DNA of 64,000 bases from a virus (IMGVR_UViG_2919450847_000004:5017-69016), one strand, 5' to 3'. Shown: positions 2,998-38,857, counted from the first letter of the stretch. The notes: generated from the letters alone by a model not told the origin. Numbers and translations are program-made.

Positions 2998-3011
2998 TTC
3001 ATGCTCCAGAA

Positions 3012-9259: not shown

Positions 9260-9660
9260 CGCGCGCCCATCAGGGTTTCGTGCCGGCAATAGCCGATCAA
9301 CCGCGGCCGCCACCGTGGTGCGTCGATCGAGGCGATGCAGGAGGTCCCGCCTTCGGTCACATGCAGCATCAGCCCGGGTCCGGCGACGACGCCAACATGG
9401 CGGAGGATCGCGCCCATCCGGAACACCGCGACGTCAAATTCGCGCGGTTCAGCGACCGCGTGCCAGGGATCGCCGGCGGCGATGGCATCGACCTGGCGCG
9501 CCATCTCCGCCGTCTCCACGGGAACGTCCAGATAGTCGGGGAGCTCGATGCCGAGCACGTCACGATAGGTCATGACCACGACGCCCCAGCAGTCGATGCC
9601 GGCGCGGGCGCGGCCCAGCCGAACCCATGGAATGCCAATGAAGGCGTTCGACCAGCTCAT
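9256..9660 (-). CDS. NlpC/P60 tail assembly protein (gpK-like)
   Basis: IGIPWVRLGR...GIDCWGVV...RHVGVV catalytic Cys/His. Confidence 0.9.
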   Translation of the reverse strand: MSWSNAFIGIPWVRLGRARAGIDCWGVVVMTYRDVLGIELPDYLDVPVETAEMARQVDAIAAGDPWHAVAEPREFDVAVFRMGAILRHVGVVAGPGLMLHVTEGGTSCIASIDAPRWRPRLIGYCRHETLMGAR

Positions 9661-10160: not shown

Positions 10161-10588
10161 CAGGGCATCACCAATAGGGACAGGGTCCAGCGGAACCACG
10201 CGCCACCAAGGGCGCTTGCGCTCGGGTCGGCCTCATCTATGAGGACCAGCCACCACGCGCGCGTGAGCAATGGCCGCCCGTCCGCCGTGAGTATCGGTGT
10301 GCCGTCGGGCATGAGCAGCGGCAGGCCGTCGGTCATCTGGTTCGGAAAGAAGAACGGAATCGCGCCTTCCGCTATCTGTTCGAACCAAAAGCGCTCGAAC
10401 CGGATCGACTGACGCGCCGACAGATCGAACGCCCCCGTCACCGGCTTGGCGGATTGCGAATACCGAAGCCGAGGACGCGGCGGCCCACTATCCTTTCGCC
10501 CCAGCCGCCGCCCGCTGGCCAGGCTGCGGCCGAACCCCTCCCGGCTCATTTTCTGCGGCAGGTCGGCCGGCCAAACCGGGATCGTCAT
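10160..10588 (-). CDS. Distal tail protein (gpM-like)
   Basis: WPADLPQ...DSGPPR.R.RYS...FERFWFEQIAEGAIPFFFP; immediately after tape measure. Confidence 0.75.
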   Translation of the reverse strand: MTIPVWPADLPQKMSREGFGRSLASGRRLGRKDSGPPRPRLRYSQSAKPVTGAFDLSARQSIRFERFWFEQIAEGAIPFFFPNQMTDGLPLLMPDGTPILTADGRPLLTRAWWLVLIDEADPSASALGGAWFRWTLSLLVMP

Positions 10589-21683: not shown

Positions 21684-22412
21684 TTATCGGATCCGGCTGC
21701 TGGTGGAGCGGATTTGCTCCAGCAGGTCATCCAGGCTCTTGCTCGCCCCAGCCTCACGCTGTGCGATGCGCGCCACCCGCGAGACGAGCGCGGTGGCGGT
21801 CTTCCGAGAGAAGCCGCCTGCCTCGCGCAGGAACTTCTCGACGTCGGAAAGGGTGGCGAGATCGTCGATGTCGGATTTCACCGCATCGACGAGGGCGACC
21901 GGGTTCATGCCGAACAGCACGACGCTCACTTCCATGAGATCGAGGCGCTTGATCGTGCGGTAAGGCTCGTCCGGCTTGGTGCCGAGAGTGAATTCCTTGG
22001 CGCGATAGCCGATCGACAGGCCGTCGAGCTCTCCTTCGCGCATGGCGGCATAGATCATCTTGCCGCGTTCGCTCTCGGTGAAGAGCCGTCCCTCGACCCG
22101 AAGGCCGGTTTCGTCCTCCGACATCTTCGTCCACTTGCCGATCGGCACCATGTCGTTGGCGGAGCCGGCCCAGCCGCCGCCATGCTGGAGCAGCATCTTC
22201 GGCAGCTTGTTCTTGGCGGACCATTCCTTGAGCGTCGCGCGGAAAGCGCCGCGCTTGATGACGTCGCCGCCATAGTCCTCGATGTCGAATATCGAGCCAT
22301 ACCCAGAGAATGTGCCGTCTTGGGCGTTCTCGGCGAACTTCACCTCGAATCCGACACTGAGACGGCCCGGGGCCTGGCCGTCCGACTTCGCTTCGATCGG
22401 CTCAAGCGTCAT
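21684..22412 (-). CDS. HK97-type prohead protease
   Basis: GTFSGYGSIF...GDVI..GAF, LLQH, GLSIGY, LMEVSVV..GMNP. Confidence 0.95.
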   Translation of the reverse strand: MTLEPIEAKSDGQAPGRLSVGFEVKFAENAQDGTFSGYGSIFDIEDYGGDVIKRGAFRATLKEWSAKNKLPKMLLQHGGGWAGSANDMVPIGKWTKMSEDETGLRVEGRLFTESERGKMIYAAMREGELDGLSIGYRAKEFTLGTKPDEPYRTIKRLDLMEVSVVLFGMNPVALVDAVKSDIDDLATLSDVEKFLREAGGFSRKTATALVSRVARIAQREAGASKSLDDLLEQIRSTSSRIR

Positions 22413-23676
22413 TGCTCGGTTTCCCAGTTTCAGACTTGGCGGGCATGATCGGCGTGCCGTCGGCCTGCACGACGGCGAAATTGCCCGGCATGATCGGCCG
22501 GTCGAGGCCGGCAACATACGGCAGGTCCTCGAAGCGCCGGGCGTCGGAGCGCAGCATCCATCCGGCGTCGATGCCGGATTTGTAGAACTCGGACCGGGCC
22601 TTATGGTCGCCGCGCAGCAGTTCCGTATCGACGAACCCCATGTAGCGGCCGGCCTGCCTCTCCTTTTTGGTCAGCAGCCAGCGATCGGCGCTGGATTCCA
22701 GCCGGCGGTGCCACGGTCGGACCGTGTACGTCACATGGGCAAGGAAGAGCTGCTCGGACGAAGCGAAGGTTGCGTTCTTGTCACCGGTGTAGCCCACCAT
22801 GATCGGCAGCACGCCCATCGCCCGGCACACCTCCTCGATCTGGAAGCCGCGCGTCTGCAGATGCTGGGCATCGACGCCGGACATTTGCTGCGACTGCCAC
22901 TTGGCGGCCCGATCCAGGATGAGCGTGCGCCCTGTATTCCGGACCCCGCTGTAATGGGCCTCGATCCATTTGCGGTAGACCTTGAGCTGAGCTTCCTCGA
23001 GCGGGCCGTCGACGGAGAGAACGCCGCTCGGCCGGGCGCCGTTGACGTGCATCCGGGCGTGGCTCGCCTCGGTCGAGATTGCCAGCCCCAGCGCCTCACG
23101 TGCCAGGCGCAGGGTTTCCAGCCCCATATAGCCGTTCCAGGCGCGCGCCTTGATGTGCCAGATGGCGCCGGCCGGGAACACCTGCCGCTCACCATCTGGC
23201 GCCGTCACGGTATAGCTCAGCGTCCAATCTCGGTTCTGCGTCACCTCCACCCGGCCAGGCTCGAAGGGAATGAGCTCGGCTATGTCACCACGAACGCGGT
23301 TCACGAAGACATAGGCGTTCTGGCACAGGGCAAGGTGCAGGCCGATGGTTTCGCGAAACTCGAAGCCGGACTGCCATTCGTTCGGCTCGGTCGACATGAT
23401 GTCGGTTAGTGCGTGCGCCTGGTCCTCCCGACGCTCTACCCGATTGTCGACGGTGACCTTCTGATAGACCTTGAACGGAACTGAGCAGATGCCCTCGGCG
23501 ATGATCGTCGCGCAGCGCAGGGCAGTCGTGACTTCCAGGGCGCGCTTCCACGTCACCGAAACTCCGGATTGCGACTGGTGGCCGCCGAATAGGTCGCGCC
23601 ACACATCCTCCGCAGAACCGTAGGAGCTGTGGTCCTTCTGCTCGGCACCGAAGAGCGTCGACAGGATCCCGCGCAT
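22402..23676 (-). CDS. Portal protein (HK97 family)
   Basis: IAEGI.SVPFKVY, EPNEWQSGFEFRE, NGARPSGVL, EEVCRAMGV.P. Confidence 0.95.
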   Translation of the reverse strand: MRGILSTLFGAEQKDHSSYGSAEDVWRDLFGGHQSQSGVSVTWKRALEVTTALRCATIIAEGICSVPFKVYQKVTVDNRVERREDQAHALTDIMSTEPNEWQSGFEFRETIGLHLALCQNAYVFVNRVRGDIAELIPFEPGRVEVTQNRDWTLSYTVTAPDGERQVFPAGAIWHIKARAWNGYMGLETLRLAREALGLAISTEASHARMHVNGARPSGVLSVDGPLEEAQLKVYRKWIEAHYSGVRNTGRTLILDRAAKWQSQQMSGVDAQHLQTRGFQIEEVCRAMGVLPIMVGYTGDKNATFASSEQLFLAHVTYTVRPWHRRLESSADRWLLTKKERQAGRYMGFVDTELLRGDHKARSEFYKSGIDAGWMLRSDARRFEDLPYVAGLDRPIMPGNFAVVQADGTPIMPAKSETGKPSNDA

Positions 23677-23819
23677 CAGAACCGCCTCGCGCCGCGGATC
23701 GCCAGGCCGATCAGTGCGAGGCCGCCGGCGATGCAGGCGGATGGCACGTGCATCATGGCGATCCCACCAACAACCAGACCGGCGCCCGATAGGCCGACGA
23801 TGTCCCACAGGAACGACAT
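23676..23819 (-). CDS. Small two-TM protein between terminase and portal
   Basis: 47 aa, almost entirely hydrophobic; coupled to the portal start. Confidence 0.65.
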   Translation of the reverse strand: MSFLWDIVGLSGAGLVVGGIAMMHVPSACIAGGLALIGLAIRGARRF

Positions 23820-23854
23820 GGTGGCGAGGCGGCGCGGAGAGGGTTCGGCCATGG

Positions 23855-25741
23855 TCACTCCGCATCGTCGGCAAGCAGGCGATCGACGGCATCTTCCGAA
23901 TCCGCGAACGATTTGCCTGGCAGCTTCAACTCGGTATCGGCGGCGCCGACGGCCATGGCGATGGTGACAAGGCCGTCGATACGCCCGCGCGAGCGTGCCT
24001 TGTCGAAGGCCCTGTTGTTCTGACCGTCGCTGTCCAGTTGCGCGTTAGCGGCGCACGATGTGGTGACCGGCGACTGCTCGATGACGATCGTGCCGGACAG
24101 GATCCGGTCCTCAAGGCGCTCCACCGAGCGCGGCATGCACAACTGCTTGTCTTCGAACATGACGCGCTTGCCCTGAGCATGCTGGACAAGCATCAGTCCG
24201 CGGCCTCTCGGTTTGTTCGGCCCCTTCCAGCGCCATACAGGAAAGCCGATATCGAGGCAGGCCTGTTCGAAGTCCTCCATCTTCGCCGCGTCGAAGGCGA
24301 GGAACTGCACATCGTGCTCGGCGCAGAGGCGGCGCACCTCTGCGGCGACGAAGGTCTTGTCGATGATCGGCGCGTCCACGGCCGTCAGGAACTCGGCTTC
24401 GACCCACTCTTCATAGGGCGCCTGGTCCTCGCGTGCGCGGTCGGCGAGGCCCCGCTTGCGCGTCCAGTACCAGGTCTTTGCGAACAACAGCCCGTCATCG
24501 TCGATCCACACCGCCGTCAGGGCGGTGAAATCGTTCTTGTCGGACAGATCGAGCGCGAGCCAGCAGCGGTAACGACGCAATGCGGGAACGTCGACGACTC
24601 CTTGAACCTCCTGCCAGGCATCTTCGGCGATCCAGAAATCCGTCGCGCCGATCGGGATGCCGAAGTACAGCCGCTTCACGGACATTGCCGTGGACAGCAG
24701 CTGCTTCGCCGTCGCAACCATCCCCTCGATGTTTTCGCGAGGGAACGTCACGCCGAGGGCCGGCAACGATTTCGGCCAGCAATCGGGATTGTCGAAAACA
24801 GTCTCCCGATCCGCCTTGTCGACGCGGGCGATGAAGGCGAAGGCCTCATCATCGCGGAACTCGCCGCGCGCGACCTTCTGGTAGAACTCGCTGTATTCCG
24901 TCCCGACGATCTGGTTGGTACTCGGCGTGTTGGTGCCAAGGATCATGATCGCATCGCCCGGCATCTTGCCGATGGCGTTCTTCCAAATCTCGATCGACGT
25001 ATTGCGCTTGAACTCGTGGATTTCGTCCGCCAGCACCGCGATCGGTCGAGGGCCGGAGATGGCCTCGCCATTGGCCAGCGACAGGAACTTCGAACCCGTG
25101 GCCGGATGCTCGATCTTCCACGCATTGTCCCCTTCGCCACGGATGACAACGCCCCCCTCCTCCTGATTTTCCAGGGTGTCGTCTTCGTCCTCTCCCGGCG
25201 GAATCGGCGCCCGGCACATCGCGACGGCATCCTTGAACAGGACGTTCGCCGTGTTCTTGTCCTGGCCGATGGCGAAGACCTCGGCGCGCGGCACGCCGTA
25301 CCAGCCCATGAGATAGAGGCCGATCGCCGCCATGAACGGCGATTTCGCCTGCCCCTTACCTGTCTCAAGCCAGGCAGACCGGAACCTCATCCGGCCGCTG
25401 GCCTTGCGCCAGCCGAAGATGCTACCGCCACAGAACACATGCCATGGCAGAGGGTGGAACGGCTTCCCCGCCGCGGTCCCGGCCGTCACGCTCAGCATGG
25501 CGGGGAAAAAGCCCAGCGCGTGCGCCGCCTTATCCGGTCGCCAGATCAGCCCCCGCTTTTCGCCGTCCCGCAGGTCTCGCAGGTGCCGCTCCGCAGCGCC
25601 GCCGACCAGTTCGCCGGCGACTATTCGGCCGGCGAGGACATCGCGGGCCCAATCCGTCGTCGGATCATTTGACCTGACGGAGGTAGCTGTCCGCCGCGCG
25701 CGGGGCTTTTTTGGCACGCTGCACCTTCTGCGCCTTGCCAC
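23855..25741 (-). CDS. terL: Terminase large subunit (exact start uncertain)
   Basis: GKGQAKSP Walker A, ADEIHE Walker B, LDLSDKNDFTA and RIDG nuclease motifs. Confidence 0.95.
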   Translation of the reverse strand: MARRRRCSVPKKPRARRTATSVRSNDPTTDWARDVLAGRIVAGELVGGAAERHLRDLRDGEKRGLIWRPDKAAHALGFFPAMLSVTAGTAAGKPFHPLPWHVFCGGSIFGWRKASGRMRFRSAWLETGKGQAKSPFMAAIGLYLMGWYGVPRAEVFAIGQDKNTANVLFKDAVAMCRAPIPPGEDEDDTLENQEEGGVVIRGEGDNAWKIEHPATGSKFLSLANGEAISGPRPIAVLADEIHEFKRNTSIEIWKNAIGKMPGDAIMILGTNTPSTNQIVGTEYSEFYQKVARGEFRDDEAFAFIARVDKADRETVFDNPDCWPKSLPALGVTFPRENIEGMVATAKQLLSTAMSVKRLYFGIPIGATDFWIAEDAWQEVQGVVDVPALRRYRCWLALDLSDKNDFTALTAVWIDDDGLLFAKTWYWTRKRGLADRAREDQAPYEEWVEAEFLTAVDAPIIDKTFVAAEVRRLCAEHDVQFLAFDAAKMEDFEQACLDIGFPVWRWKGPNKPRGRGLMLVQHAQGKRVMFEDKQLCMPRSVERLEDRILSGTIVIEQSPVTTSCAANAQLDSDGQNNRAFDKARSRGRIDGLVTIAMAVGAADTELKLPGKSFADSEDAVDRLLADDAE

Positions 25742-26615: not shown

Positions 26616-26864
26616 ATGAAACAGGTCGCTTACACCTCCACCGCAGCGAAGGCCCTCAAGCGCCACGGCAACCGGGCCGCTGCGATCCGCGCCAAGGTCG
26701 CACAGTACGCCGCCGACCCGGCCTCGCTGGCGAACAACGTCATCATCCTCACGGGTGTTGAGGCGCGGCGGCTGCGGGTGGGCGACTTCCGGGTGATCTT
26801 CACCGAAACCGCCACCACCGTTACCGTGCTCGATATCGGCCCGCGTGGCGGCATCTACGACTGA
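26616..26864 (+). CDS. RelE/ParE (HigB-like) toxin
   Basis: 82 aa; YTSTAAKALK...RRLRVGDFRVIF...VLDIGPRGGIY. Confidence 0.9.
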   Translation: MKQVAYTSTAAKALKRHGNRAAAIRAKVAQYAADPASLANNVIILTGVEARRLRVGDFRVIFTETATTVTVLDIGPRGGIYD

Positions 26865-26879
26865 GAGGGACAGGAACCA

Positions 26880-27263
26880 ATGACCGCCATCATGACCAAG
26901 AGCCCGGCCGGCGAGGACATCGTGATCCTCTCCCGCCCCGAATATGACGCCCTTGTTGCCGCCAGCGAGGATGCCGCCGACGCCCGCGCCGCTGGCGCCG
27001 TGCTCTCCCGCATCGAGGCCGGCACCGAGGCGCTGATCGCCGACGAGGATATGGACGCCTATCTCGCCGCCGCTACCCCGCTCGCCTTCTGGCGCAAGAA
27101 GCGCGGCCTGACCCAAGCCGCGCTGGCCAGCGCCACCGGCGTGGGTCAAGGCTTCCTCTCTGAGATCGAGAGCGGCAAGAAGACGGGCGATGTTGCCACG
27201 CTGAAGAAGATCGCCAATGCGCTCGGCCTGCGGATAGATGACATCGTCGCGGAAAATGAATGA
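26880..27263 (+). CDS. XRE-HTH antitoxin (HigA-like)
   Basis: Acidic N-terminus (VILSRPEYDAL...EDAAD); C-terminal HTH WRKKRGLTQAALA...GQGFLSEIESGKK. Confidence 0.9.
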   Translation: MTAIMTKSPAGEDIVILSRPEYDALVAASEDAADARAAGAVLSRIEAGTEALIADEDMDAYLAAATPLAFWRKKRGLTQAALASATGVGQGFLSEIESGKKTGDVATLKKIANALGLRIDDIVAENE

Positions 27264-27467
27264 CCGGGCCGGGCAAACCCGGCTTAGGCGTGGCGTTCCG
27301 GCTCCTGTGCACTCGGAGGCGGTTCACACAGGTTTGCGCCGTTGACCCGCGCCGAATACGGGTGCGGACCTGTGCCGTTTCGCTGCGTCAGTCGGGGGCT
27401 TTGCGTCTCCGCGTGCCCTTCCACGTCGCCGGTCAACTATGAAGCCAAGAGCATCGGAGCTCCTGCC

Positions 27468-27538: not shown

Positions 27539-27567
27539 ATTACGACTGATTCACCCGCTTTTGTCCA
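27539..27567 (-). promoter_or_regulatory. Putative late (pR'-like) promoter
   Basis: Minus strand TGGACA-N17-CGTAAT overlapping the last codons of the upstream regulator gene. Confidence 0.55.
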
Positions 27568-28264
27568 GCGCTGGTTCCGGGTCCGACGCGTCGTGCGCCA
27601 CAATATTCACGATTCGCTCCTCATGCGGCCACACCGGCCTATCGTATCGGTGCCCCGCCACGCGGACGGGGAGTTCCTCGTCTGCCTTGGGCGGCGACCG
27701 CAGGCGCCAGAACCGCGCCAGCGCCGACAGGCCCTCTTTCAGCACGATGAGCTCGGCCTCGCCGCCTATGGGGCAATCATAGAGCACGACGGCTTCCAGC
27801 GTCCGGAACACGGCACGGTGATCAGACGTCCCTCGGAGGATGTTCATCGCCGAGCCGTGGTGACCGAGCACGCGCTCGCGCCGTTCCTCTTCGGTTTCCG
27901 GACGCTCCGCCGCTCCGACGTCGCCGTCACGGTCACCTCGGTCACCCGCCGCCATCGTGCCCAGGACCGTTGTGGTGGTGATCGGCGTGGCCATGATCTG
28001 GTGGAATTCCCCGATCAGCCGAAACCACCGCTCCGCCGCCCAATATTCCGCCTCGTCGATCCGGCCGGTCATGAACAGCCGGCCGATGGCGGTGGCGGCG
28101 CGCTGGTCCATTCGACGGTCCTTGCCGAGCCCGGCGCGATGCGGCTGGCTCATGACGACGGACCGGACATCGCCGAGACCGCGCTTCGCCCGCTCGTCGG
28201 TGGATTCGGAGAGCTTTCCGCTCGGCGTCCTCTTGCCCATCTTGCGCTTCCGACCCTTGGCCAT
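27551..28264 (-). CDS. Putative late-gene activator/antiterminator (Q-position protein)
   Basis: Last early gene before the late promoter; basic N-terminus GRKRK.GKRTPSGKLS; function inferred from position only. Confidence 0.55.
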   Translation of the reverse strand: MAKGRKRKMGKRTPSGKLSESTDERAKRGLGDVRSVVMSQPHRAGLGKDRRMDQRAATAIGRLFMTGRIDEAEYWAAERWFRLIGEFHQIMATPITTTTVLGTMAAGDRGDRDGDVGAAERPETEEERRERVLGHHGSAMNILRGTSDHRAVFRTLEAVVLYDCPIGGEAELIVLKEGLSALARFWRLRSPPKADEELPVRVAGHRYDRPVWPHEERIVNIVAHDASDPEPALDKSG

Positions 28265-28278
28265 CGAACTCCCCCACA

Positions 28279-29295
28279 TCACGCTGAATCCCCTGCCGCC
28301 CGCTGAAGCAGGTCAGGCCCGTCGCGGCTCGGCGGCCATTCACTCGGCAAGTAGCGACCTGTGACCTCGCGGTCACGGCCGGCGAATGGCGCGGCGCGGT
28401 ACACAATGGCCCGCAGCGGAAATCCAGCCTCGCTGGCTACTGCCTGCCATGCCGCCCAAGCACCCGTTCCATGCTCCACCAGAACGCCGCCGGAGAAGCC
28501 CGGCGACAGGGTGCGCCGAAGTGCTGCCACGGCCGGGCTGTCGGGGGGCCGAACGACGGATCCGGTGCTGAAATTGTCGAAGATGCGCCGACTCAAATAG
28601 GCCGACGGGTCAAGCATCTTGCGTGCCTTGGGCCGCTCCGAGCGGCAAGCGGAACGGTATGGCTCGATCGACGCCATCGCCTTCTGCCGATCATCGGGCG
28701 AGAGCTTTCGCCAACGTCGCCGCGCCGTGACCTTCGACGCCGTTGGAGGCGGAGCATATCGAGCGAAGAACGCCTCGAACTCCTCATCCCGATCGGTGTC
28801 TATCCCGCCAACCGCCCCCTTGGGGGCTATGGGGGATATTTTCTCTCTTTCCGTATTTGCTTCTTCTATATGCACAACCGGCTTTGCCGCGCGCGGCTTT
28901 TCAGGCTGTGGCCGGTACTTAGGTGTCGGATGAGCCACAACCGGATTTTCAGGCTGTGGCTCGGTCTCCGAGTTGACCTCGGAAGCACTATCCGTAGTGT
29001 CGTTCGGTTCGTCATACACAACATAGTCGATCCCGTTGAAAGCCCTAGTGACGGGGTCGCGCGTGCGTTCTCGTTTTATCCACCCGGCATCCACCAACTC
29101 GGCAACGACGCGCTGCGTCTTGTCCCGGCCGATGCGAAACCGCTCGCTGAGGTGCGACAGCTCGACGTTCCACGCCTCTGGCCGGCTGCGCAGATAGACA
29201 AGCACGCCGAGCGCCTCTGGCGAAAGGCGGTCGTCTTCCACCACGGCGTTCGGCAGCACGGTGAAGTTTCGGTTGTAGCGGCGGCGGATGATCAC
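28279..29295 (-). CDS. Phage replication initiator (N-terminal wHTH, O-like)
   Basis: NFTVLPNAVVEDDRLSPEALGVLVYLRS.P..W...L.ERF.IGRD...ELV.AGWI. Confidence 0.8.
   Translation of the reverse strand: MIIRRRYNRNFTVLPNAVVEDDRLSPEALGVLVYLRSRPEAWNVELSHLSERFRIGRDKTQRVVAELVDAGWIKRERTRDPVTRAFNGIDYVVYDEPNDTTDSASEVNSETEPQPENPVVAHPTPKYRPQPEKPRAAKPVVHIEEANTEREKISPIAPKGAVGGIDTDRDEEFEAFFARYAPPPTASKVTARRRWRKLSPDDRQKAMASIEPYRSACRSERPKARKMLDPSAYLSRRIFDNFSTGSVVRPPDSPAVAALRRTLSPGFSGGVLVEHGTGAWAAWQAVASEAGFPLRAIVYRAAPFAGRDREVTGRYLPSEWPPSRDGPDLLQRAAGDSA
28873..28962. repeat. Iteron-like repeats (probable origin) inside the replication gene
   Basis: CACAACCGG x2 (28873, 28936), TTTTCAGGCTGTGGC x2 (28898, 28946), GAGCCACA/TGTGGCTC inverted repeat; AT-rich tract at about 28835-28870. 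Confidence 0.6.
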
Positions 29296-29735
29296 TGGGA
29301 CGCCTCCCAGCGCAACTTGTCGAACAGAGGTCCCTCTTCGCGCGGTCGCGAGGGCGTGTTCCAGTGGCGACCCTTGACCTTGCCGACGACGCGGAAGCCT
29401 GCCCCGCGGAGGGATGAACCGCCTTCGCTGGCCAGCGTATAGGTGACTACCTTGCGAAACCCGCGTGAGAATGCCGCTCGGCAGGCGGCGCCCTTAACGA
29501 ATGACACCGCGTTCCGGGTGCCATCGGTCGCCACGCGCAATATCTCCACGGTCAGGCCATCCTGAAGATGCCGCGCGACCGGGCGGCCAACGATGGACAC
29601 GCCAACGAGCCGCCCATCCAATTCCGCACCGGTCGACCAGAGGTGACCGACGACCGGATCATTGTGACGATGGTGCTGATCGACAAAGGCATTCGCCTCA
29701 TCGAGGGACAGCGGAACAAGGGTGAGGTGGCTCAT
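29292..29735 (-). CDS. XF1762-family protein (GNAT-like, Mom-like)
   Basis: LSLDEANAFV.QHHRH...VGVSIVGRPVARHL..G.TVEILRVATDGTRNAVSF...VTYTLASEGGSSLRGAGF. Confidence 0.75.
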   Translation of the reverse strand: MSHLTLVPLSLDEANAFVDQHHRHNDPVVGHLWSTGAELDGRLVGVSIVGRPVARHLQDGLTVEILRVATDGTRNAVSFVKGAACRAAFSRGFRKVVTYTLASEGGSSLRGAGFRVVGKVKGRHWNTPSRPREEGPLFDKLRWEASQ

Positions 29736-30652
29736 AACCCGCACCCCGCTTCGCAGACCATAAGCATGCCTTGGCCGGCTTCCTCGTCGGTGCGCAGGTC
29801 GACCTGATCGAGAGGAACGCGATCCCGATGCAGGAACTCCTGCTCGCGCATGCCGGGCGTGGTGCGGATCAGGCGGTCGATCTCGACCGCGTCCGCCCAT
29901 GCCTTCGGGTCGTTGTCGCGAAGCCAGCGCCATTCCGCATTCGTCTTGTAGGGGCAGTAGATGCATGCGCTCTTGGGCGGCACGGGAAAGCCGTGGCCTT
30001 CCAGCCACGACACGCAATCGCGCCGCGACATCCGCTTTTCTAACAGCGGATAGCGGTTCACAGTCCATGACGTGAAGGCCGCCCCTGCGCGCACTACTTC
30101 GTCAGTCGAAATGCCGATCCAAACCTCGCACGAACCGGCCGGGATGCGCTGGCGCGCCGCATAGCCAAGCAGTTCGCGCTGTTTCTTCTCCAGCGGCTCG
30201 ATCTTGAACTCGCGCGTGCACTGGCGCTTTCCCTGCCCACCACGACCGTCCTTGCCGCCGGAGGTGAAGAATGGCGCAGAGACGAAGCGATCATTGTTGA
30301 GCACGCCGCGCCCGGCTGCCCGATTGCGGATGCGATCGGACAGCCGGCCACCTCGGCTGACGGTGTGCGTCTCCACACGGCCGTTGCTGTAGCGACGCAC
30401 CTGCGCGTCGAGCCATTCGAGGTGGCGATAGGTCGCCTCGCTCTCGTCACCGGGATCGGCGTTGATGATGTGGTCGACCCACGGCAGTTCGCCGACGCAC
30501 ATCATCATGATCAACGCCGAGGACTGAATGCCGCCGCCGTTCGACATGACGCGCAGATTGGCGCCTTCGACCGGCCCCCAAGACCATCCACCACGACGGA
30601 CACGGGGACGCTTTGGGCCGGGAGGAGTGGTGAGTGCGAATTGCTCCGTCAC
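29732..30652 (-). CDS. PAPS-reductase-family (PP-loop/AANH) protein with Cys clusters
   Basis: SNGGGIQSSAL PP-loop variant, ADPGDES, RQCT..FKI.P, WIGIS.DE, YPLL, KSACIYCPY. Confidence 0.85.
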   Translation of the reverse strand: MTEQFALTTPPGPKRPRVRRGGWSWGPVEGANLRVMSNGGGIQSSALIMMMCVGELPWVDHIINADPGDESEATYRHLEWLDAQVRRYSNGRVETHTVSRGGRLSDRIRNRAAGRGVLNNDRFVSAPFFTSGGKDGRGGQGKRQCTREFKIEPLEKKQRELLGYAARQRIPAGSCEVWIGISTDEVVRAGAAFTSWTVNRYPLLEKRMSRRDCVSWLEGHGFPVPPKSACIYCPYKTNAEWRWLRDNDPKAWADAVEIDRLIRTTPGMREQEFLHRDRVPLDQVDLRTDEEAGQGMLMVCEAGCGL

Positions 30653-32301
30653 TCTGCCGCCCTCCGGCTGAGGTAACTCTCGGCAAGCGCGCGGATGCGG
30701 CTGTCGTCGGAATGCACCTGGACGATGCCCTTGCCGGGATCGACGATGCCCTGCGCCTGGCTGGACTTGAGCCCGAGCGTCGACACCACCAGCGGATCAG
30801 AGCCACCATTGGCGTGCAGGTAGATGCCGGTGACCTCCCGCGTCTGGCCTGGGCGATCGAGGCGGCCGAAGATCTGCTCATGCACTTTGGGCGACCAATC
30901 GAGCTCGCCGATGACGACGGTACGGCAGCGATGCTGCAGGCCGTCGAGACCGGCGCCGGACCGCAGGGAGATGATCATCAGGTCGGTCTCGCCGCTGATG
31001 AACGCCGCCTTCGCCTTGTCCTTCTGGGTGGTGCTCTCGGTGCCGGTGTAGAGCCGCGGCTTGAAATCCTTCAGCTCCTTCAGCCAGATGTCGTAGACGT
31101 CGCGGTGCCAGCCGGCCAGCAGCACCGGCTCGCCGGCTTCCAGCAGCATGCGGACATAGGCGGCGACATGGCGGGCCTTGGCGGTGCCGGTCACCATGCG
31201 GGCGAAGGCATCGAGCTCGCGCGCCGCCTGGCCGCGCTCGGCGAAGCTGCCGGACACGACCTTCATGGCGAGCGTGCGCATCAATGACAGAGCGTCGGCC
31301 TCGACCTCTTCGTCATAGTCGACCTCGACGGTGAGGGTGTTGATTGGCGCCCCGGTGCGCTCGCGCCGCAGCACCAGCTGCAGTTCGCGCAGATAGGTGC
31401 CGAGCGCATCGGGATCCTTGACGATCCACTTGCCGTTCTTGCCGGTGCACCACTCGCGGATGAAATCGTCCTGGGCGCCCAACGCACCCGGCTCGATGGC
31501 CTCGACGACGTTGAAGATCTCGCCGCCGTAATTGTAGACCGGCGTCGCCGAGAGGCCGATGCGCAAGCCGGCCGCCGCGGTGAATATCGCCGCGGCGCTG
31601 CCCTTGCCGGTCTTCCGGCCGTGACGAAGCTCCTGCACCTCGTCATATACGACGGCCTTGAACAGGCCGGTCCTGGCGACGTCGACCCATCCGATGATGT
31701 TCGAATAGCTGAAGACGTAGATGTCCGCCTCCGGCAGGTCGTAGGGGCGACCGCCCTTGATGATGTGCGCGCGCAGGTGGGTGAACTTCTCTATGTATTC
31801 CTTCACCCATTGGGTGCGCAGGTGCGGCTGCACGACGATGGCCGCCGGCAGGTGCTCGCCATCGACCAGCGCGCCGAGCGCCGACACGGTCTTGCCGAGC
31901 CCGACGTCATCGAGAAGCAGGAGGCGCTTCTTGAGCCTCGCCAGCTCTACGGCCTGCGCCTGATAGCGATAGAGTTCCCTGCCCTCCCGGAAGCCGGCCG
32001 CCGCCGGCGGAGACCAATCCGGCATGAGGATCCGCTCGACATCGTCGCGTGCCGTGGCGAAGGCCCGGCAGCCGCCGAGCAGGCGCTCGCGGTCGGCATC
32101 GGCGATGTCCATGGGATAGCGGTGCAGGAACCATTCGAGGTCCGTCGCGGTCGCTTCCGTCGCGGGGAAGAAGAACGGCCCGGCCGAGCCCTTGTGGATG
32201 TGTGGGAACATGGCCTTGAGCCGGATGGCGACATGCGGCTCCAGCTTCTCCATGCGCCAGCGCGCGCCGTCGAAGGCTATCTGCCCATAGGTGCGGATCA
32301 C
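30649..32301 (-). CDS. SNF2-like SF2 helicase
   Basis: DDVGLGKT, YDEVQEL, LSATP, GLDGLQ, QIFGRLDRPGQ. Confidence 0.9.
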   Translation of the reverse strand: MIRTYGQIAFDGARWRMEKLEPHVAIRLKAMFPHIHKGSAGPFFFPATEATATDLEWFLHRYPMDIADADRERLLGGCRAFATARDDVERILMPDWSPPAAAGFREGRELYRYQAQAVELARLKKRLLLLDDVGLGKTVSALGALVDGEHLPAAIVVQPHLRTQWVKEYIEKFTHLRAHIIKGGRPYDLPEADIYVFSYSNIIGWVDVARTGLFKAVVYDEVQELRHGRKTGKGSAAAIFTAAAGLRIGLSATPVYNYGGEIFNVVEAIEPGALGAQDDFIREWCTGKNGKWIVKDPDALGTYLRELQLVLRRERTGAPINTLTVEVDYDEEVEADALSLMRTLAMKVVSGSFAERGQAARELDAFARMVTGTAKARHVAAYVRMLLEAGEPVLLAGWHRDVYDIWLKELKDFKPRLYTGTESTTQKDKAKAAFISGETDLMIISLRSGAGLDGLQHRCRTVVIGELDWSPKVHEQIFGRLDRPGQTREVTGIYLHANGGSDPLVVSTLGLKSSQAQGIVDPGKGIVQVHSDDSRIRALAESYLSRRAAE

Positions 32302-32657
32302 AGCCAGGCCCTCCCCAGATTGAAGACGGCCGTCGGCTTGCCGGCGAGCGCCGGGGGAAAGCCCATCGCGACGTTGGTCACCAGCAGAACGGCGCTGACA
32401 CATTCGTGGGCGGCGTAGCGCTCGCATTGGCGCAGGATGGCGCGGCGCTGGCCCTTAATCTTCACTTCGACAGCCGTGCCGCCGATCATGAAGTCCACGA
32501 TGTCGCCCGGGGCGAGCGTCACCTCGCGGCGGAATTCCAGCCCGGCCGAAGTGAAGCGCTCTGCCATGGCCGCCTGGAGCTCCTTCTCATCGTGGAGAGG
32601 AAACCGGACGCCGGTGAGCGTGCGATAGATCGGAATCGTCCCTCCGGTCAGCGTCAC
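32298..32657 (-). CDS. PD-(D/E)xK nuclease-like protein
   Basis: EKELQ...REV...IVDF...VEVK...QCERY; coupled to the helicase. Confidence 0.7.
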   Translation of the reverse strand: MTLTGGTIPIYRTLTGVRFPLHDEKELQAAMAERFTSAGLEFRREVTLAPGDIVDFMIGGTAVEVKIKGQRRAILRQCERYAAHECVSAVLLVTNVAMGFPPALAGKPTAVFNLGRAWL

Positions 32658-32965
32658 CTCGCGCCTCCTTCAAGGATGCGGTCGAGGAGGATGCCGACAA
32701 GGCCCAGCGAGGCGCCGGCGGCGTTCTGCCGGATGCTCTTGCGTAGCGTCTCCGGCGTGACGCCGTGCTGGAGCGCCAGTGAGATGCTTACAGCTGCATC
32801 GGACGCGAAGATTTCGGCATCCGAGCCGATCTTGGTGCCGTCGATGAACACCTCGCCGACACGGCCGTCGTCGTAATAGCCGAAGGTCACGGTGTAGCGG
32901 ATGCCGGCAACCACGATCTCGAAGGCCTCGGAGGAGCGGCGGTCCGGAAGTCGCTCGCGCGTCAT
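32654..32965 (-). CDS. Stand-alone TSCPD domain (C-terminal domain of class II ribonucleotide reductase)
   Basis: RERLPDRR...YTVT.G.Y.DGR.GEVFID..K.GS...AVSISLALQHGV. Confidence 0.8.
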   Translation of the reverse strand: MTRERLPDRRSSEAFEIVVAGIRYTVTFGYYDDGRVGEVFIDGTKIGSDAEIFASDAAVSISLALQHGVTPETLRKSIRQNAAGASLGLVGILLDRILEGGAR

Positions 32966-33567
32966 GCCGCCACCTCGCCGAACTTGTCGGTTTCATTGCC
33001 CCAGCAGTCCCACCCCTCCCGGCGCTGGCGGGCGAATATCTCGACATAGGGGCCGGGCGCGAATTTCTGCACCCGTTCGTAGAACTCCTCGGGCTTTCGG
33101 CTGTGCTCGCGCCGCGCCGACAGGATCACCTCGAACACGCTGGCGCTGAGGCGCTTCGGCTTGCCTATCCTCGCCAGCAGGCAGAACTCGGCATTCTTCC
33201 GCGTCGTGTAGCCCTGCCCGACATGGAAGCAGTTGCGCGGATAGAAGAGCGGCTCGCCGGCGCGGCCGAACCGCAGATGCGTTTTCAGCCAGACGAAGCC
33301 CATGCCGGAATAGCGAAAGCGATAGGCCTTCAGGATGGTGAAGGCCTTCGGCAGCTTCGGCCCCGTCGTCCAGAAGAACAGCCAGCAACCAGCAGGATCT
33401 GCCAGGGCGCGCACCGGCAACGCGGCGATGTCGTCATCGGTCATCCGCTTGTAGTGCTGCGGCCGGCGCTTGGTGCCGGCGACGAACTTGTGCGGCGCGT
33501 CGATGCAGATCACGCGATAGCCGGGCGACATGCCTTCGAACGGGCCGAGATCGATGGGGCGGGTCAT
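32962..33567 (-). CDS. MT-A70-family adenine methyltransferase
   Basis: YRVICIDAPH, Y..M...DIAALPV, FVWLK, TRKNAEFCLL, HSRKPEEFY, VEIFARQ.R.GWD.WGNE. Confidence 0.88.
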   Translation of the reverse strand: MTRPIDLGPFEGMSPGYRVICIDAPHKFVAGTKRRPQHYKRMTDDDIAALPVRALADPAGCWLFFWTTGPKLPKAFTILKAYRFRYSGMGFVWLKTHLRFGRAGEPLFYPRNCFHVGQGYTTRKNAEFCLLARIGKPKRLSASVFEVILSARREHSRKPEEFYERVQKFAPGPYVEIFARQRREGWDCWGNETDKFGEVAA

Positions 33568-33749
33568 CAAGAGGGCTTCCTCCGAGCCCGGAACCACACG
33601 CCGCACACCGCCGAGCGGGTCATGCCGAACCGCTTTGCGACTTCCGAGGACGTGCACGTGCCGCGCAACATGATGATGGCCCTGCGCTCTTCGGCCGTGC
33701 GCTTGGCGCCGGTCTGCCACACGTCGGCTTTCCAGGGGATCTGGCTCAT
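33567..33749 (-). CDS. Small HTH protein, GcrA N-terminal-like
   Basis: TSSEVAKRFGMTRSAVCGVWFR resembles GcrA S.SQIA..LG.TRNAVIGK.HR. Confidence 0.55.
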   Translation of the reverse strand: MSQIPWKADVWQTGAKRTAEERRAIIMLRGTCTSSEVAKRFGMTRSAVCGVWFRARRKPS

Positions 33750-33827
33750 TCGGTCACCCGAATGCCTGCCCTGGTCGCCGGGATGTCGGAGGTGGCCGGG
33801 GGAGTTGGAGAGATCCATGCCGGCACC

Positions 33828-34805
33828 TCAATGCTGCAGGAAGGCGATGCGCCGGCGGCTTTGCCAGCACAGCGCACAGGTGGAACAGGAATCGGTCTTG
33901 CCGACCTGCTGCGGGCACAGCACGGCGTCGGCGGGGACCTGGCGGGGATGTTCGACGGTGACGGTGGCGCACTCGTCCACCGGCGCATTGGAGAAGCGAA
34001 TGGCGAAGCGATCCCAGCGCGCCAGCACCAGCCGCACCAGTGCGGAAGCTATGGGATCGCGACGGCCGTCGATGCGAGCGGTGAAGCCGAAGACATGCAG
34101 CGCCGGAAATCGGTCGATGAACGCCGCCCAGAGGTCGACATAGGCGACCGAGTAGAAGTCGCCGAGCACGTGCAGGCGCACCGCGAAGCCGGCCGGATGA
34201 CGCGACTGAAGCACCGCGAGTTCATGCCCGAGGCGATCCTCCAACGCCCTGCCGGCCTGCACCCGCTTGGCGTGGTGCATGTTGTTGCCGTAGCAGCTGC
34301 GCCAATGCCGGCAGCTATCCGGGCAGGTCGCCCTCTCTTCCAGCGTGAGTGTGTAGACCGGGAAGCCGGCCCAGGCGCCCTTGGCGATCGCGCCACCGAT
34401 CTTCCAGTGGTTGACACCCGAGACGAGCACGTTCAGCAATCTGTCGACCGGCGTGACGGTCGCTGGGTAGATGGTCCGGTCCTCGCTCAGTGCGGGATGG
34501 TCGACGGGCGGGATCCGGACGGACCGTTCGGTTGCCGTCTTAGGGGCGAAGCGGCTTGGCGGGCGCTTCTCGCCCCCCTTCGCCCGGCGCCTCAGCCCGA
34601 GCTTCGCCCGTTTCATGGCGACCAGCTGCCGCGAGCACCCGAATTCCTCCGCAATCTCGGCATCGGACTTGTCGGCCTCGAAGGCTTGGCGCAGCTCCGC
34701 GGCAGGCAGCTTCTCCCGCGGGCCGCGCCGCGCCGGCGCCGGGAATGGCACCACGGACGGTCGGTCGAGCGGGTTGAGCAGGTTCGGCAGGATCCGGCCC
34801 GTCAT
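33828..34805 (-). CDS. HTH fused to Gp88-like radical-SAM-type Fe-S domain
   Basis: SDAEIAEEFGCSRQLV HTH; TCPDSC..WRSCYG, VRLHVLGDF, C-terminal CPQQ..C.TC.LCW. Confidence 0.7.
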   Translation of the reverse strand: MTGRILPNLLNPLDRPSVVPFPAPARRGPREKLPAAELRQAFEADKSDAEIAEEFGCSRQLVAMKRAKLGLRRRAKGGEKRPPSRFAPKTATERSVRIPPVDHPALSEDRTIYPATVTPVDRLLNVLVSGVNHWKIGGAIAKGAWAGFPVYTLTLEERATCPDSCRHWRSCYGNNMHHAKRVQAGRALEDRLGHELAVLQSRHPAGFAVRLHVLGDFYSVAYVDLWAAFIDRFPALHVFGFTARIDGRRDPIASALVRLVLARWDRFAIRFSNAPVDECATVTVEHPRQVPADAVLCPQQVGKTDSCSTCALCWQSRRRIAFLQH

Positions 34806-35170
34806 GGCGTCAATCCCAGCGATCGGGCGAGTTCGGCTCGGCCGCGCAGTTCCCAGCCAAGTCCGTGCCGCGTCGTGATCACGATGCCGAAGGGCGTCAG
34901 CTTCTTGCGGATCTTGCAGATGAAGACGTCGGCGATCTTGGTATCGGGCTCATCACGGCCGTCCGCCCGATAGAGAGCGGCCATCACCGCGGCCTTGGTG
35001 GCGAGCTCGCGCTTGAGCAGCACGCCGCAGACGCAGGCCTCGCTCCTGGTCAAACGCCACTCGACCGGCGCGGGGAAGGTGACGCCGAGGACCGCTTCCA
35101 ATTGATCGATGCGCTGCCGGAGGCGGTCGTTCTCCGCCTCGAGCGCATCAGCTCGTGCGTTTGCGTCCAC
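34802..35170 (-). CDS. Receiver-less OmpR-type winged-helix regulator, CtrA DNA-binding-domain-like
   Basis: LTRSE...ALY....DEPDTKIADVFICKIRKKL...ITTRHGLGW vs CtrA DEPELKIIDVFICKLRKKL. Confidence 0.8.
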   Translation of the reverse strand: MDANARADALEAENDRLRQRIDQLEAVLGVTFPAPVEWRLTRSEACVCGVLLKRELATKAAVMAALYRADGRDEPDTKIADVFICKIRKKLTPFGIVITTRHGLGWELRGRAELARSLGLTP

Positions 35171-35987
35171 GCGACTGCCTCTTGAACCAGATGACGCCCA
35201 GCGCGCGCCAGAGCGGCACGGAATGAGCGGCGGCGAACATCTTTGCCTCCTTCTCCGCCTCGGGCCCGAGCGTCATGATGACGTCGCGGATGGCATCCGG
35301 TGTCACCTCGCCGCTGTACTCGGGATCGGTGAGCAACATCTCGACGGCCTTGACCGCCGCGGCGCTGACCGGCGCCATGCGCGCGGCGCCGAGTATTTCG
35401 AGCATCTGCCGCGCCTTCATGGCACCGCGCCGGTTGATCAGCCTGCCGATGGCGCCTACCGCCATGGTGTCGCCGGGCTTGAAGAAGCCGCTGCCGGGTG
35501 GCACGCGGAGCACCCGGATGTTCGCGCGCCGGCACACCTGGTCGATGGTCATGGCGTCGGGATCCTCAGCCGCCACCGCCGCGAAGTGCATCTGGGTGGC
35601 GGTCACCGCGATCCGGTCGCGGTTATGGCCGATGAAGGCCAACGCCCGCGCCGCGCGGCTATCCGCCTCCACGATCATGATCGGGATTGACGATATGGCC
35701 GGGTGCGTCGCCGCGGCGATCGCGGTGTGCTGGCCGTCGATGATGTCAAAGCCTTCCGGCGTCTCGACAACGATCGGACATTTGAACCGCCGCCAGTCCC
35801 AGTCGGCCACGATGCGGCGGATGAGGTGTACGGACCGCTCCGACAGATTGCGCTGGTAGCTTTCGTCGACGAACAGCGTCGTCGGATCGACCCACCGGAA
35901 TTCCGGCTGTTGCGCCAGCTCCGGCTCGCCACCAGGTTCGATGCCCGGCACTCCAATGGGCTGAATTGGTCGACGCGCGCCGCTCAT
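35148..35987 (-). CDS. ParB/Srx-like (DUF6551, DGQH-motif) protein
   Basis: LFVDESYQRNL...WDWRRF..PIV...IIDGQHTAIAA. Confidence 0.75.
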   Translation of the reverse strand: MSGARRPIQPIGVPGIEPGGEPELAQQPEFRWVDPTTLFVDESYQRNLSERSVHLIRRIVADWDWRRFKCPIVVETPEGFDIIDGQHTAIAAATHPAISSIPIMIVEADSRAARALAFIGHNRDRIAVTATQMHFAAVAAEDPDAMTIDQVCRRANIRVLRVPPGSGFFKPGDTMAVGAIGRLINRRGAMKARQMLEILGAARMAPVSAAAVKAVEMLLTDPEYSGEVTPDAIRDVIMTLGPEAEKEAKMFAAAHSVPLWRALGVIWFKRQSRGRKRTS

Positions 35988-35989: not shown

Positions 35990-36271
35990 CTACGCGCCCA
36001 CCATGCCGAGCGCCTGAAGGTACAGGTCAAGGATCGCCTCGTGCTCGGCGCGCTGGTCGGCGTCCTGCTTGCGGATCTTCAGGATCTCGCGCAGCGCCTT
36101 GACGTCGAAGCCGGTTCCCTTGGCTTCGGCGAACACCTCCTTGATGTCCTCGGAAATGGTCTTCTTCTCTTCCTCGAGACGCTCGATGCGCTCGATGAAG
36201 GATTTCAGCTGCTCCTTGGCGAAGCCGGCCGCGGCGTCGGACAAGGGTTGATCGTTGGGTATGTCGGACAT
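35990..36271 (-). CDS. gapR: GapR/DUF2312 (UPF0335) nucleoid-associated protein homolog
   Basis: [48 protein letters not shown]...[13 protein letters not shown]. Confidence 0.93.
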
Positions 36272-37558: not shown

Positions 37559-37828
37559 TCACCGCCGCAAAGTACGATTTGCTCGATGGATCAAGCCCAT
37601 CCGTTGAGACATTGACTGATCAAAGCTGACGTCGGCGCGCACCCGGCATTCTTCGGACTGCGGCTGCTCCAGTTGCTGGACGTACTTGTGCCCGCCATTG
37701 ACCGGCGCCGGCAGCTTGCCGAGCACGTCACAGGCTGCGTCGTATGTAGGGAACGGGCCGATGTGACGGGTGGCAAGGTTGAGATCTTCGCCGTCCATCT
37801 TGAAGACAATGATGAAGGCGCCCATCAC
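37559..37828 (-). CDS. Hypothetical protein
   Basis: Coupled to the cro stop codon. Confidence 0.6.
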   Translation of the reverse strand: MMGAFIIVFKMDGEDLNLATRHIGPFPTYDAACDVLGKLPAPVNGGHKYVQQLEQPQSEECRVRADVSFDQSMSQRMGLIHRANRTLRR

Positions 37829-38073
37829 GACGCTCCACCCTGCGGGGAGCGGGCTTCGCCCATGTGTTCGGGGGCTTCAAAGAACCACGCGTCGTTCCAC
37901 TGGAGGCCGCGTTTCAGGGCTTCTGCGCGGATGAGCGCCATTTGTGACCGGTCCGGATGCAGATCTCCCTTTTCCCATCGGGAAACGGTCGCCTGCGACG
38001 TGCCAGCTATGGCGGCAAGCGCCGCTTGAGATACGTCGAGCACCGATTTGCGGATGAGAAGCATCTGGTTCAT
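37825..38073 (-). CDS. cro: Cro-like HTH repressor
   Basis: SQAALAAIAGTSQATVSRWEKG; divergent from cI. Confidence 0.85.
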   Translation of the reverse strand: MNQMLLIRKSVLDVSQAALAAIAGTSQATVSRWEKGDLHPDRSQMALIRAEALKRGLQWNDAWFFEAPEHMGEARSPQGGAS

Positions 38074-38080
38074 GCGCATG

Positions 38081-38163
38081 AACATACTCATGTGCATGAG
38101 AAAGACAAGTCCATCATACACTCACGCATTGGATTTTGCTAATGCACTCACGTATGGCGGTAA
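38081..38163. promoter_or_regulatory. OR region: three operators with divergent pR/pRM
   Basis: CATRC-N6-GYATG sites at 38083-38098, 38115-38130, 38141-38156; minus TTGTCT-N16-TATGTT; plus TTGCTA...GTAAT. Confidence 0.8.
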
Positions 38164-38164
38164 T

Positions 38165-38857
38165 ATGAATGTCGCCGCGACAGTGAACGCAATCTTGAAG
38201 GCGAAGGGCTGGATCCATCAGGATATGGCCGATGCCATGGGCGTCAGCCAGCCGGCGGTCACTCGATGGGCTGCCGGCAAGAGCTTTCCTCGCGGCGAAA
38301 GCTACGTGAAGCTAATGGAGTTGGCGAAGTCGGTTCTGGAAGACGAACCGGTGGACGAAGCCCGCCCAGTCCGCGCCGCCCTCGTCTCGACGCCTCTTTC
38401 GGGCCAGGTTAGCGCCGGCCTCTTCCAGGAGGTTGACGAACTCGAAAACCAGGATCCTGATGAGGTCCTGGCGCAGAGGGACCCGCGCTACCCCCGGGCG
38501 CGAACTCTGGTCTTCGACGTCGGCGGCAATTCCATGAATGCCTTCGATCCTCCGATCCCCGACGGTTCCCGGGTCAGCGGCCCGGCCTTCGAAGACATCA
38601 ACGAGAAGCTGCAGAACGGCATGGCCGTCGTGATCGAGCGCAGGTCCGCCGACGGACAGATGCGGGAATGGTCCGTCAAGGAGCTCGAGGTGCGCGATGA
38701 CGGCTACACCTTTCATCCTCGCTCGACTGATCCTCGCTACAAGCCGATCTTGGTGGACACAAATCTGCAAGCCGATGACGGCAAGACGGTGGAAATCATC
38801 GCCCTTGTCGTCGATGTGACGCGACCGGTACGTTGGCGGAGCGGCAGCTCGCGTTGA
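38165..38857 (+). CDS. cI: CI-like repressor (HTH plus S24 peptidase)
   Basis: HQDMADAMGVSQPAVTRWAAG HTH; GNSMNA Ser and SVKEL Lys; SAG cleavage-site region. Confidence 0.92.
   Translation: MNVAATVNAILKAKGWIHQDMADAMGVSQPAVTRWAAGKSFPRGESYVKLMELAKSVLEDEPVDEARPVRAALVSTPLSGQVSAGLFQEVDELENQDPDEVLAQRDPRYPRARTLVFDVGGNSMNAFDPPIPDGSRVSGPAFEDINEKLQNGMAVVIERRSADGQMREWSVKELEVRDDGYTFHPRSTDPRYKPILVDTNLQADDGKTVEIIALVVDVTRPVRWRSGSSR

Follow-up and report, generated by a model that had tools for sequence, protein, structure and literature searches.

A temperate siphovirus-like prophage carries Mom-lineage and PAPS-reductase-like genes as separable cargo in its early operon

Mom of bacteriophage Mu (PF25680; PDB 8bv8) is a Gly-tRNA-dependent GNAT that hypermodifies adenine at N6. 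It acts alone and is sufficient for its modification; the donor is Gly-tRNA(Gly), R111 and S124 are indispensable, and deletion of a helix-turn-helix (HTH)-like insertion (residues ~175–209) abolishes activity (PMC13219725). Related GNAT toxins such as TacT target tRNA (PMC13219725). Here we examine a short protein of the XF1762 family and its neighbour, a PAPS-reductase-like PP-loop protein (hereafter called PAPSr), both encoded in a viral stretch of 64,000 nucleotides (IMGVR_UViG_2919450847_000004:5017-69016; the window is this whole stretch). The two genes lie in an eight-gene run that a sequence-only reading had put forward as a candidate for an undescribed DNA-modification operon. Comparison with related phages did not bear out one DNA-modification operon. 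The backbone genes of the run reflect the synteny of the phage lineage, and the remaining genes (nuc119–SNF2, PAPSr and XF1762) vary independently.

Known DNA phosphorothioation requires a PAPS-domain protein and an NTPase of the DndD/SspC/BrxC type (PMC12914056). Escape from Dnd defence is conferred on a Vibrio podophage by a PAPS–Dam fusion (Piel et al.; bioRxiv 10.1101/2021.05.05.442762), which is the only experimental role known for phage PAPS domains. In a 2026 survey, PAPS reductases and Mom homologues both figure as putative cargo against host defence (PMC13551039), and a reappraisal of Dnd is silent on stand-alone phage PAPS enzymes (PMC10853773). JSS1_004, considered as a phage PAPS reductase acting against Dnd, was rejected: it is a T7 gp0.7-like kinase. 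We found no paper linking PAPS reductases and Mom-like GNATs as a pair, and the name XF1762 does not occur in the searchable literature. The word 'undescribed' was nevertheless only partly right, as the XF1762 family already bears the PHROGs label 'Mom-like DNA modification protein', and an anti-defence role has been discussed for PAPS reductases of phages (PMC13551039; bioRxiv 10.1101/2021.05.05.442762).

The eight open reading frames (ORFs) of the run occupy positions 29292–34805 on the minus strand. They are listed here with the initiator gene downstream and two genes upstream (coordinates are those of the window; E, expectation value; aa, amino acids):

28279..29295, minus strand, replication initiator Rep, HTH_36/DnaD-like (phrog_270, E 2e-21; PF13730, E 6e-6)
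29292..29735, minus strand, XF1762-family protein, 147 aa (NF045478, E 1.8e-52)
29732..30652, minus strand, PAPS-reductase-like PP-loop protein, PAPSr, 306 aa (phrog_424, E 2.6e-40)
30649..32301, minus strand, SNF2-family helicase, with a GTG start overlapping the upstream stop (PF00176, E 4.8e-10; phrog_62, E 9.7e-77)
32298..32657, minus strand, nuc119, a 119-aa putative PD-(D/E)xK nuclease (phrog_5928, E 4.8e-33)
32654..32965, minus strand, lone TSCPD-domain protein, 103 aa (PF12637, E 1.9e-5)
32962..33570, minus strand, MT-A70 family DNA N6-adenine methyltransferase (PF05063, E 1.9e-19; phrog_359, E 2.8e-56; PADLOC MTase_II, E 9e-45)
33567..33818, minus strand, 83-aa ORF, possibly HTH (sub-threshold sigma-70 region 4 and MarR matches, E 0.015–0.04)
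33828..34805, minus strand, GP88-domain protein with a GcrA-like N-terminal region (PF17338, E 1.3e-6; GcrA, E 0.0012; phrog_2554, E 6.9e-33)
34802..35170, minus strand, winged-helix protein (wHTH), CtrA/OmpR C-terminal domain-like (NF045991, partial match, E 1.2e-7; Trans_reg_C, E 0.001)
35148..35987, minus strand, ParB-like protein (phrog_1033, E 1.2e-14)

All eight ORFs were found directly upstream of the replication gene and mostly coupled by overlaps, as the sequence-only reading had it; nearly all of their junctions share 4 nucleotides. The coupling is not confined to them. Start and stop codons overlap by 4 nucleotides at 9 of the 11 junctions from ParB through the gene after Rep, and the Rep start shares 4 nucleotides with the XF1762 stop. 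The coupled series thus takes in wHTH and ParB upstream, and Rep and the next gene downstream. Because coupling runs on at both sides of the block, it is a trait of the whole operon and not of the eight genes.

Relatives of the window phage, found via the initiator and other genes, separate the run into two kinds of gene. Two of them (L254 and L255) have the order XRE-ParB-wHTH-GP88-..-MT-A70-..-TSCPD, followed at once by Rep; in L254 the GP88 and ParB-like proteins are 72% and 68% identical to those of the window. A third (L253) has the same backbone plus nuc119–SNF2. In L094 the order is nuc119-SNF2-x-PAPSr-Rep, without XF1762, and in L261, an Ancylobacter metagenome-assembled genome, it is MT-A70-TSCPD-..-PAPSr-XF1762-Rep, without SNF2. 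Single cargo genes also occur elsewhere: L084 has an 85%-identical PAPSr beside a different initiator and none of the other window genes, and L260 (Ancylobacter defluvii) has a 91%-identical XF1762 in a different context. Close relatives keep ParB-wHTH-GP88-MT-A70-TSCPD-Rep (TSCPD is conserved in L253, L254, L255 and L261), and SNF2, PAPSr and XF1762 are missing in every combination. The inherited backbone of the lineage comprises the Cro-like, GapR-like, ParB-like, wHTH, GcrA–GP88, MT-A70, TSCPD and Rep genes. A variable slot just upstream of the initiator holds the separable cargo: the nuc119–SNF2 pair, PAPSr and XF1762. Because these cargo modules come and go independently among relatives, the eight genes are not one system.

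XF1762 is a short GNAT of the Mom lineage that is missing one of the features by which Mom proper is defined. The protein matches NF045478 over almost the entire model (177 bits against a cut-off of 50; positions 2–143 of 143). It shares with Mu Mom the family phrog_1384, to which Mom matches at E 7.8e-84 and XF1762 at E 4.5e-31, the latter over profile positions 19–166 of 245 only. The window protein has no match in Pfam even at E 10, including the Mom model PF25680; close relatives score 24.9–28.7 bits against that model, whose cut-off is 27.1. The AlphaFold (AF2) model of XF1762 (predicted local distance difference test score, pLDDT, 91) has a GNAT fold and its top Foldseek match is Mu Mom (8bv8_B, E 6.6e-9). 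Structural alignment with VIA-align gave the longest superposition with Mom (Z 14.6, root mean square deviation 2.7, 142 of 147 residues, Mom 38–221), although generic N-acetyltransferases tie with Mom in Z at 14–15. The parallel with the Mom GNAT that had been drawn from motifs is thus upheld by fold, by PHROG membership and by the Foldseek search. Searches of PDB sequences, by single sequence and by profile, missed Mom and returned only chance matches, for example atlastin and lactate oxidase.

At the residue level, alignments of the XF1762 family with Mom by hhalign are statistically weak (E 0.11; E 0.0026 with a probability of 11%), but the runs agree. They place Mom H58, E108, R111, N121 and S124 opposite the family-invariant H22, E64, R67, N75 and S78, and they end before the region of the essential Mom residues D149 and R151 (also Y159). 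XF1762 differs from Mom in several other ways. It has 147 residues, compared with 231–241 in Mom; it lacks the first ~37 residues of Mom, including a basic stretch at 11–19; and the HTH-like insertion is missing, as the protein ends at residue 147 and phrog_1384 positions 167–218 are unmatched. In the model, a conserved basic loop (121–139, with W125, R130, P131 and R132) joins the last two strands. Unlike mom of Mu, the XF1762 gene lies away from any Mu-like genome end, and no com-like regulator accompanies it.

The family is large, with 4,652 representatives at 50% identity (E ≤ 0.001) in many phyla. Cultured phages with homologues include phi1026b, Min1, Samy and ZF40. The homologues, including gp66 of Burkholderia phage phi1026b, are 46–55% identical to XF1762, lie in the early/replication region and are annotated 'Mom-like DNA modification protein'. 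The phi1026b gene adjoins a DNA methyltransferase gene and a ParB-like gene. By contrast with the window phage, none of the three cultured phages inspected has a PAPS-like neighbour.

PAPSr is predicted to have a PAPS-reductase fold with a PP-loop, like DndC, SspD and CysH. It has no match in NCBIfam, including the DndC model TIGR03183, or, even at E 10, in Pfam, including PF01507, and a PDB sequence search returned nothing. A genome search with PF01507 recovered two host genes and not PAPSr. The PADLOC model of SspD matches part of the protein (E 2.8e-13; residues 142–284, model positions 82–219 of 277 only). Foldseek matches of the structural model (pLDDT 84) are YcfA, CysH, APS reductase, LarE and TtuA (E 8e-5 to 1e-3), with template-modelling scores by target of up to 0.56. 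Four motifs are conserved in 31 homologues: SxGxGIQS, which is invariant, RQCT, CxxCP and a C-terminal CxxGCGL tail. We take these to resemble the cluster cysteines of APS reductase and DndC, and the ECGLH tail of CysH. The fold, the partial SspD match and the conserved CxxC all agree with the DndC/SspD-like assignment made from the sequence. Residues 19–26 (RRGGWSWG) are near-invariant in homologues, yet the Atlas record begins at residue 36. Because this segment is conserved, and because the extended form shares 4 nucleotides with the SNF2 stop, the longer start is probably real.

PAPSr is nonetheless distinct from the described PAPS-domain systems. It shares with DndC, SspD and BrxP the PP-loop ATP-pyrophosphatase fold and conserved cysteines, including CxxC, whereas their PP-loop reads SGGKDS and that of PAPSr is the CysH-like SxGxGIQS. 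None of the other components of Dnd and Ssp systems (DndE, SspB, or a DndD/SspC/BrxC ATPase) is encoded near PAPSr, and the host lacks Dnd and Ssp genes. The PAPS–Dam protein of the Vibrio podophage is likewise a phage-borne PAPS domain in a variable early region, and is linked there to a DNA methyltransferase. However, it is a Dam fusion with a canonical PAPS domain, whereas PAPSr is stand-alone and divergent, and has no evident Dnd target in its host.

Does the pair PAPSr and XF1762 travel together? The sequence-only reading had proposed co-occurrence as a check, and the outcome is positive, although penetrance is weak. We scanned loci with two models, a hidden Markov model (HMM) of close PAPSr homologues and a canonical PAPS-domain model, at a distance of up to 10 kb. 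A PAPS-like gene lies within that distance in 33 of 160 XF1762 loci (21%; 12 of 80 in IMG/VR and 21 of 80 in genomes), compared with 1 of 80 loci anchored on MT-A70 and 0 of 80 anchored on bona fide Mom. An earlier indication of near-absence (5/62 adjacent, 0/55 in the reverse direction) came from the narrow close-homologue HMM and was too low once the canonical model was added. Dereplication at 85% XF1762 identity, within a range of thresholds of 80–95%, left 80 evaluable lineages; single linkage at 60–70% had chained nearly all XF1762 sequences into one cluster. In these 80 lineages a PAPS-like gene is adjacent in 7, within 5 kb in 15 and within 10 kb in 17. Adjacent partners belong to the window-type family, with its SYGGGANS variant in Bacillota and Bacteroidota, and to the canonical SGGKDS type. 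They stand upstream of XF1762 in some lineages and downstream in others, and the pair is spread over Alpha- and Betaproteobacteria, Bacillota, Bacteroidota and Planctomycetota.

Association of the two genes is genuine and facultative, and it is specific to the XF1762 branch rather than to Mom. No PAPS-like gene lies within 10 kb in about 80% of XF1762 loci, and of the four near-complete XF1762 phage contigs checked, three carry none anywhere, so that XF1762 cannot be dependent on such a gene. In the other direction, XF1762 is present in 4 of 80 PAPSr-anchored loci. Among 401 genomes sampled from the order, XF1762 scored above the cut-off in 3 and a strong PAPSr was found in 10; both occur only in the genome of the window and in one fragmented assembly, on separate contigs there. 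Neighbour clustering and Pfam tallies revealed no dominant partner of either protein. The neighbours are replication, recombination and packaging genes, and the commonest named neighbours of XF1762 are DNA methyltransferases. One 85% cluster of XF1762 loci with PAPS-like partners comprises L264 (Lactonifactor), L268, L269 and L333 (Bacillota) as well as L273 and L329, and its PAPS-like proteins are near-identical across assemblies labelled Bacillota and Bacteroidaceae. These pairs may represent a gut phage of broad host range, a recent transfer or errors in contig binning.

Fusions were sought, together with neighbours, in the best 150 of the 4,652 XF1762 cluster representatives. P0495 (L256:218-1978) is a single ORF in which a PAPS_reduct domain (SGGKDS, CxxC) at the N-terminus is followed by two HTH-like repeats and, at the C-terminus, by an XF1762 domain. 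Its source is one 2.4-kb metagenome contig from activated sludge, and no close relatives were found in IMG/VR. P0369 fuses a C5 DNA methyltransferase to XF1762, which points to DNA as a shared target and to the fusion of independent activities within one guild. Two further forms were seen: P0474 is a tandem double XF1762, and P0473 (L257:5001-6377) has a C-terminal extension with a weak Recombinase match and adjoins a 2293-aa MutS_I/Eco57I/helicase giant protein.

The identities, the folds, the modular presence and absence and the statistical co-occurrence are results of the analysis, and every chemical step that follows is inferred. With modest confidence, we think it most likely that the run brings together anti-restriction modules that work independently. 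The cargo slot holds three separable modules, namely nuc119 with SNF2, the stand-alone PAPSr, and XF1762 as a minimal Mom-lineage GNAT, and expression of all cargo would be joined to that of the replication genes. Each of three enzymes (MT-A70, the PP-loop enzyme and XF1762) would act independently, with either replicating phage DNA or the DNA-sensing defences of the host as its target. The probable reaction of XF1762 is acylation of an amine on a DNA base, with a Mom-like active site of H22, R67 and S78. The PP-loop enzyme probably applies ATP and cysteine/Fe-S chemistry to DNA, or else blunts phosphorothioate-based defence. The two would form one functional guild, often side by side, with neither needing the other.

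Several observations weigh against independent DNA-directed modules. The 20-fold enrichment of PAPS-like genes near XF1762, together with the fused ORF, could instead mean real cooperation. The controls behind that comparison are imperfect: the MT-A70 loci are mostly from environmental phages and the Mom loci mostly from Mu-like phages with a fixed architecture. The HTH-like insertion and the basic N-terminus, both needed by Mom, are missing from XF1762, and its substrate may therefore be something other than DNA. The host genome contains neither DndC nor a second SspD-like gene, and a DndD/SspC-type ATPase is missing from the operon.

A two-step DNA hypermodification pathway, which narrows the central proposal of the sequence-only reading to PAPSr and XF1762, we rank second and regard as unlikely. 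For example, the PP-loop enzyme would adenylate or thiolate its target (a base, the backbone or a carboxylate donor), and transfer or capping of the group would fall to the Mom-like GNAT. The rates of adjacency (7/80) and of proximity within 5 kb (15/80) in dereplicated lineages suit such a pathway, as do the involvement of at least two PAPS subfamilies (SxGxGxQS/SYGGGANS-type and SGGKDS-type) in both gene orders and several phyla, the single-ORF PAPS_reduct–linker–XF1762 fusion, the lack of any such association for bona fide Mom, and the retention of the pair in the diverged relative L261. But ~80% of XF1762 loci and near-complete XF1762 phages do without a PAPS-like gene, XF1762 accompanies PAPSr in just 4 of 80 loci, L094 and L084 carry PAPSr without XF1762, and L260 carries XF1762 without PAPSr. 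The fusion comes from a single short contig, and the C5-methyltransferase–XF1762 and PAPS–Dam fusions show that this guild fuses independent activities. We think it more improbable still that neither cargo enzyme acts on DNA, PAPSr being a sulfur-metabolism or regulatory moron (an auxiliary metabolic gene, or IbrA-like) and XF1762 an acetyltransferase of protein, tRNA or a small molecule. PHROGs does file phrog_424 under 'moron, auxiliary metabolic gene', XF1762 ties structurally with generic N-acetyltransferases (Z 14–15) and lacks the DNA-binding insertion of Mom, and related GNAT toxins act on tRNA (PMC13219725). Yet PF01507 matches the CysH-type genes of the host itself and not PAPSr, PAPSr is always in replication and methyltransferase neighbourhoods, P0369 joins XF1762 to a C5 DNA methyltransferase, and the catalytic residues of Mom are invariant in the XF1762 family.

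A third alternative would unite nuc119, SNF2 and PAPSr as an Ssp-like trio for phosphorothioation of phage DNA, in the roles of nickase, ATPase and PP-loop enzyme. Overlaps join the three genes in the window and their order is the same in L094, PAPSr partly matches SspD, and a PAPS-domain protein with an NTPase is what known phosphorothioate synthesis needs (PMC12914056). We consider this very improbable. The nuc119–SNF2 pair occurs without PAPSr in L253 and L035, any SNF2 match is found in only 3 of 80 PAPSr loci, and SNF2 is not an ATPase of the DndD/SspC/BrxC type. Nuclease and SNF2 pairs are, moreover, a common phage replication and recombination module.

The MT-A70, TSCPD and SNF2 identities given by the sequence-only reading were confirmed by Pfam (PF05063, PF12637 and PF00176). 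MT-A70 scores 70.7 bits against a cut-off of 23.9 over the whole model (positions 1–172 of 172) and is an orphan; a restriction partner was not seen. The nuc119 protein has a D..EVK motif and no Pfam or PDB sequence match that would place it with VRR-NUC or other PD-(D/E)xK nucleases, and phrog_5928 is listed as function unknown. Its homologues lie directly upstream of SNF2 in three other loci (L035, L094 and L253), and the two genes are an optional cassette. The 83-aa ORF has no PHROG match. The GP88 protein, read earlier as a Gp88-like Fe-S/radical-SAM protein, kept the first half of that description only: it matches GP88, GcrA and DUF7227 and no radical-SAM domain, and its cysteines are spaced C-x3-C-x5-C and not CxxxCxxC. 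Its Atlas neighbours are GP88 families of unknown function, and one Atlas cluster joins GcrA and GP88. The gene that follows and is coupled to Rep (27551–28282, minus strand) encodes a 243-aa protein with 46–52% identity in all relatives of the phage. It has no Pfam or PHROG match and may be a replication accessory protein or a small terminase.

This block forms the central part of an early operon for regulation and replication. The operon belongs to a siphovirus-like temperate prophage carried by a genome of the Xanthobacteraceae (Ancylobacter/Xanthobacter-like). The G+C content of the window is 64–68%, and a long minus-strand run extends from ~38.1 kb down to ~0.4 kb. Structural, lysis and control genes of the prophage are:

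2257-3075, endolysin
6050-9313, tail J
10585-14562, tape measure
20286-21662, major head
22402-23892, portal
23855-25741, large terminase
35990-36271, minus strand, GapR-like DNA-binding protein (PF10073, E 3.6e-35)
37825-38121, Cro-like HTH
38048-38857, plus strand, CI-like repressor, divergent from the Cro-like HTH

No tRNA genes were found in the window (1–64000), and no integrase was identified in the scanned parts of it. A PADLOC scan assigned the block to no defence system, with generic SNF2 and methyltransferase matches and the partial SspD match only. Between the early operon and the terminase, a plus-strand island (26616–27442), opposite to all surrounding genes, contains a transcriptional-regulator-like gene (26880–27263; phrog_7241, E 9e-23). 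The early operon also encodes look-alikes of alphaproteobacterial chromosome and cell-cycle factors: the GapR-like protein, the CtrA/OmpR-type winged helix, and the GcrA-like N-terminus fused to GP88. Caulobacter GcrA reads adenine methylation, and the MT-A70 methylase gene is two genes downstream of the GcrA-like/GP88 gene.

Hypermodified phage DNA is a plentiful source of new chemistry and anti-restriction tools, and the mechanism of Mom was solved only in 2026. The XF1762 family represents a larger branch of the Mom lineage, with shorter proteins, in temperate phages of many phyla; it has kept the catalytic residues and not the DNA-binding insertion. Unlike Mom, this branch is preferentially carried beside DndC/SspD-like enzymes. 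We speculate that XF1762-type 'mini-Mom' GNATs might install a base modification other than that of Mu and, where a PAPS-like enzyme is at hand (about one-fifth of lineages within 10 kb, rarely fused), might cooperate with it on an undescribed compound mark, for example one derived from a thio- or acyl-adenylate; we rate this as doubtful. The eight-gene run is a phage backbone with swappable cargo, not a pathway, and the PAPSr/XF1762 pair within it is a fair lead to a DNA mark, or a way past host defences, that is not yet described.

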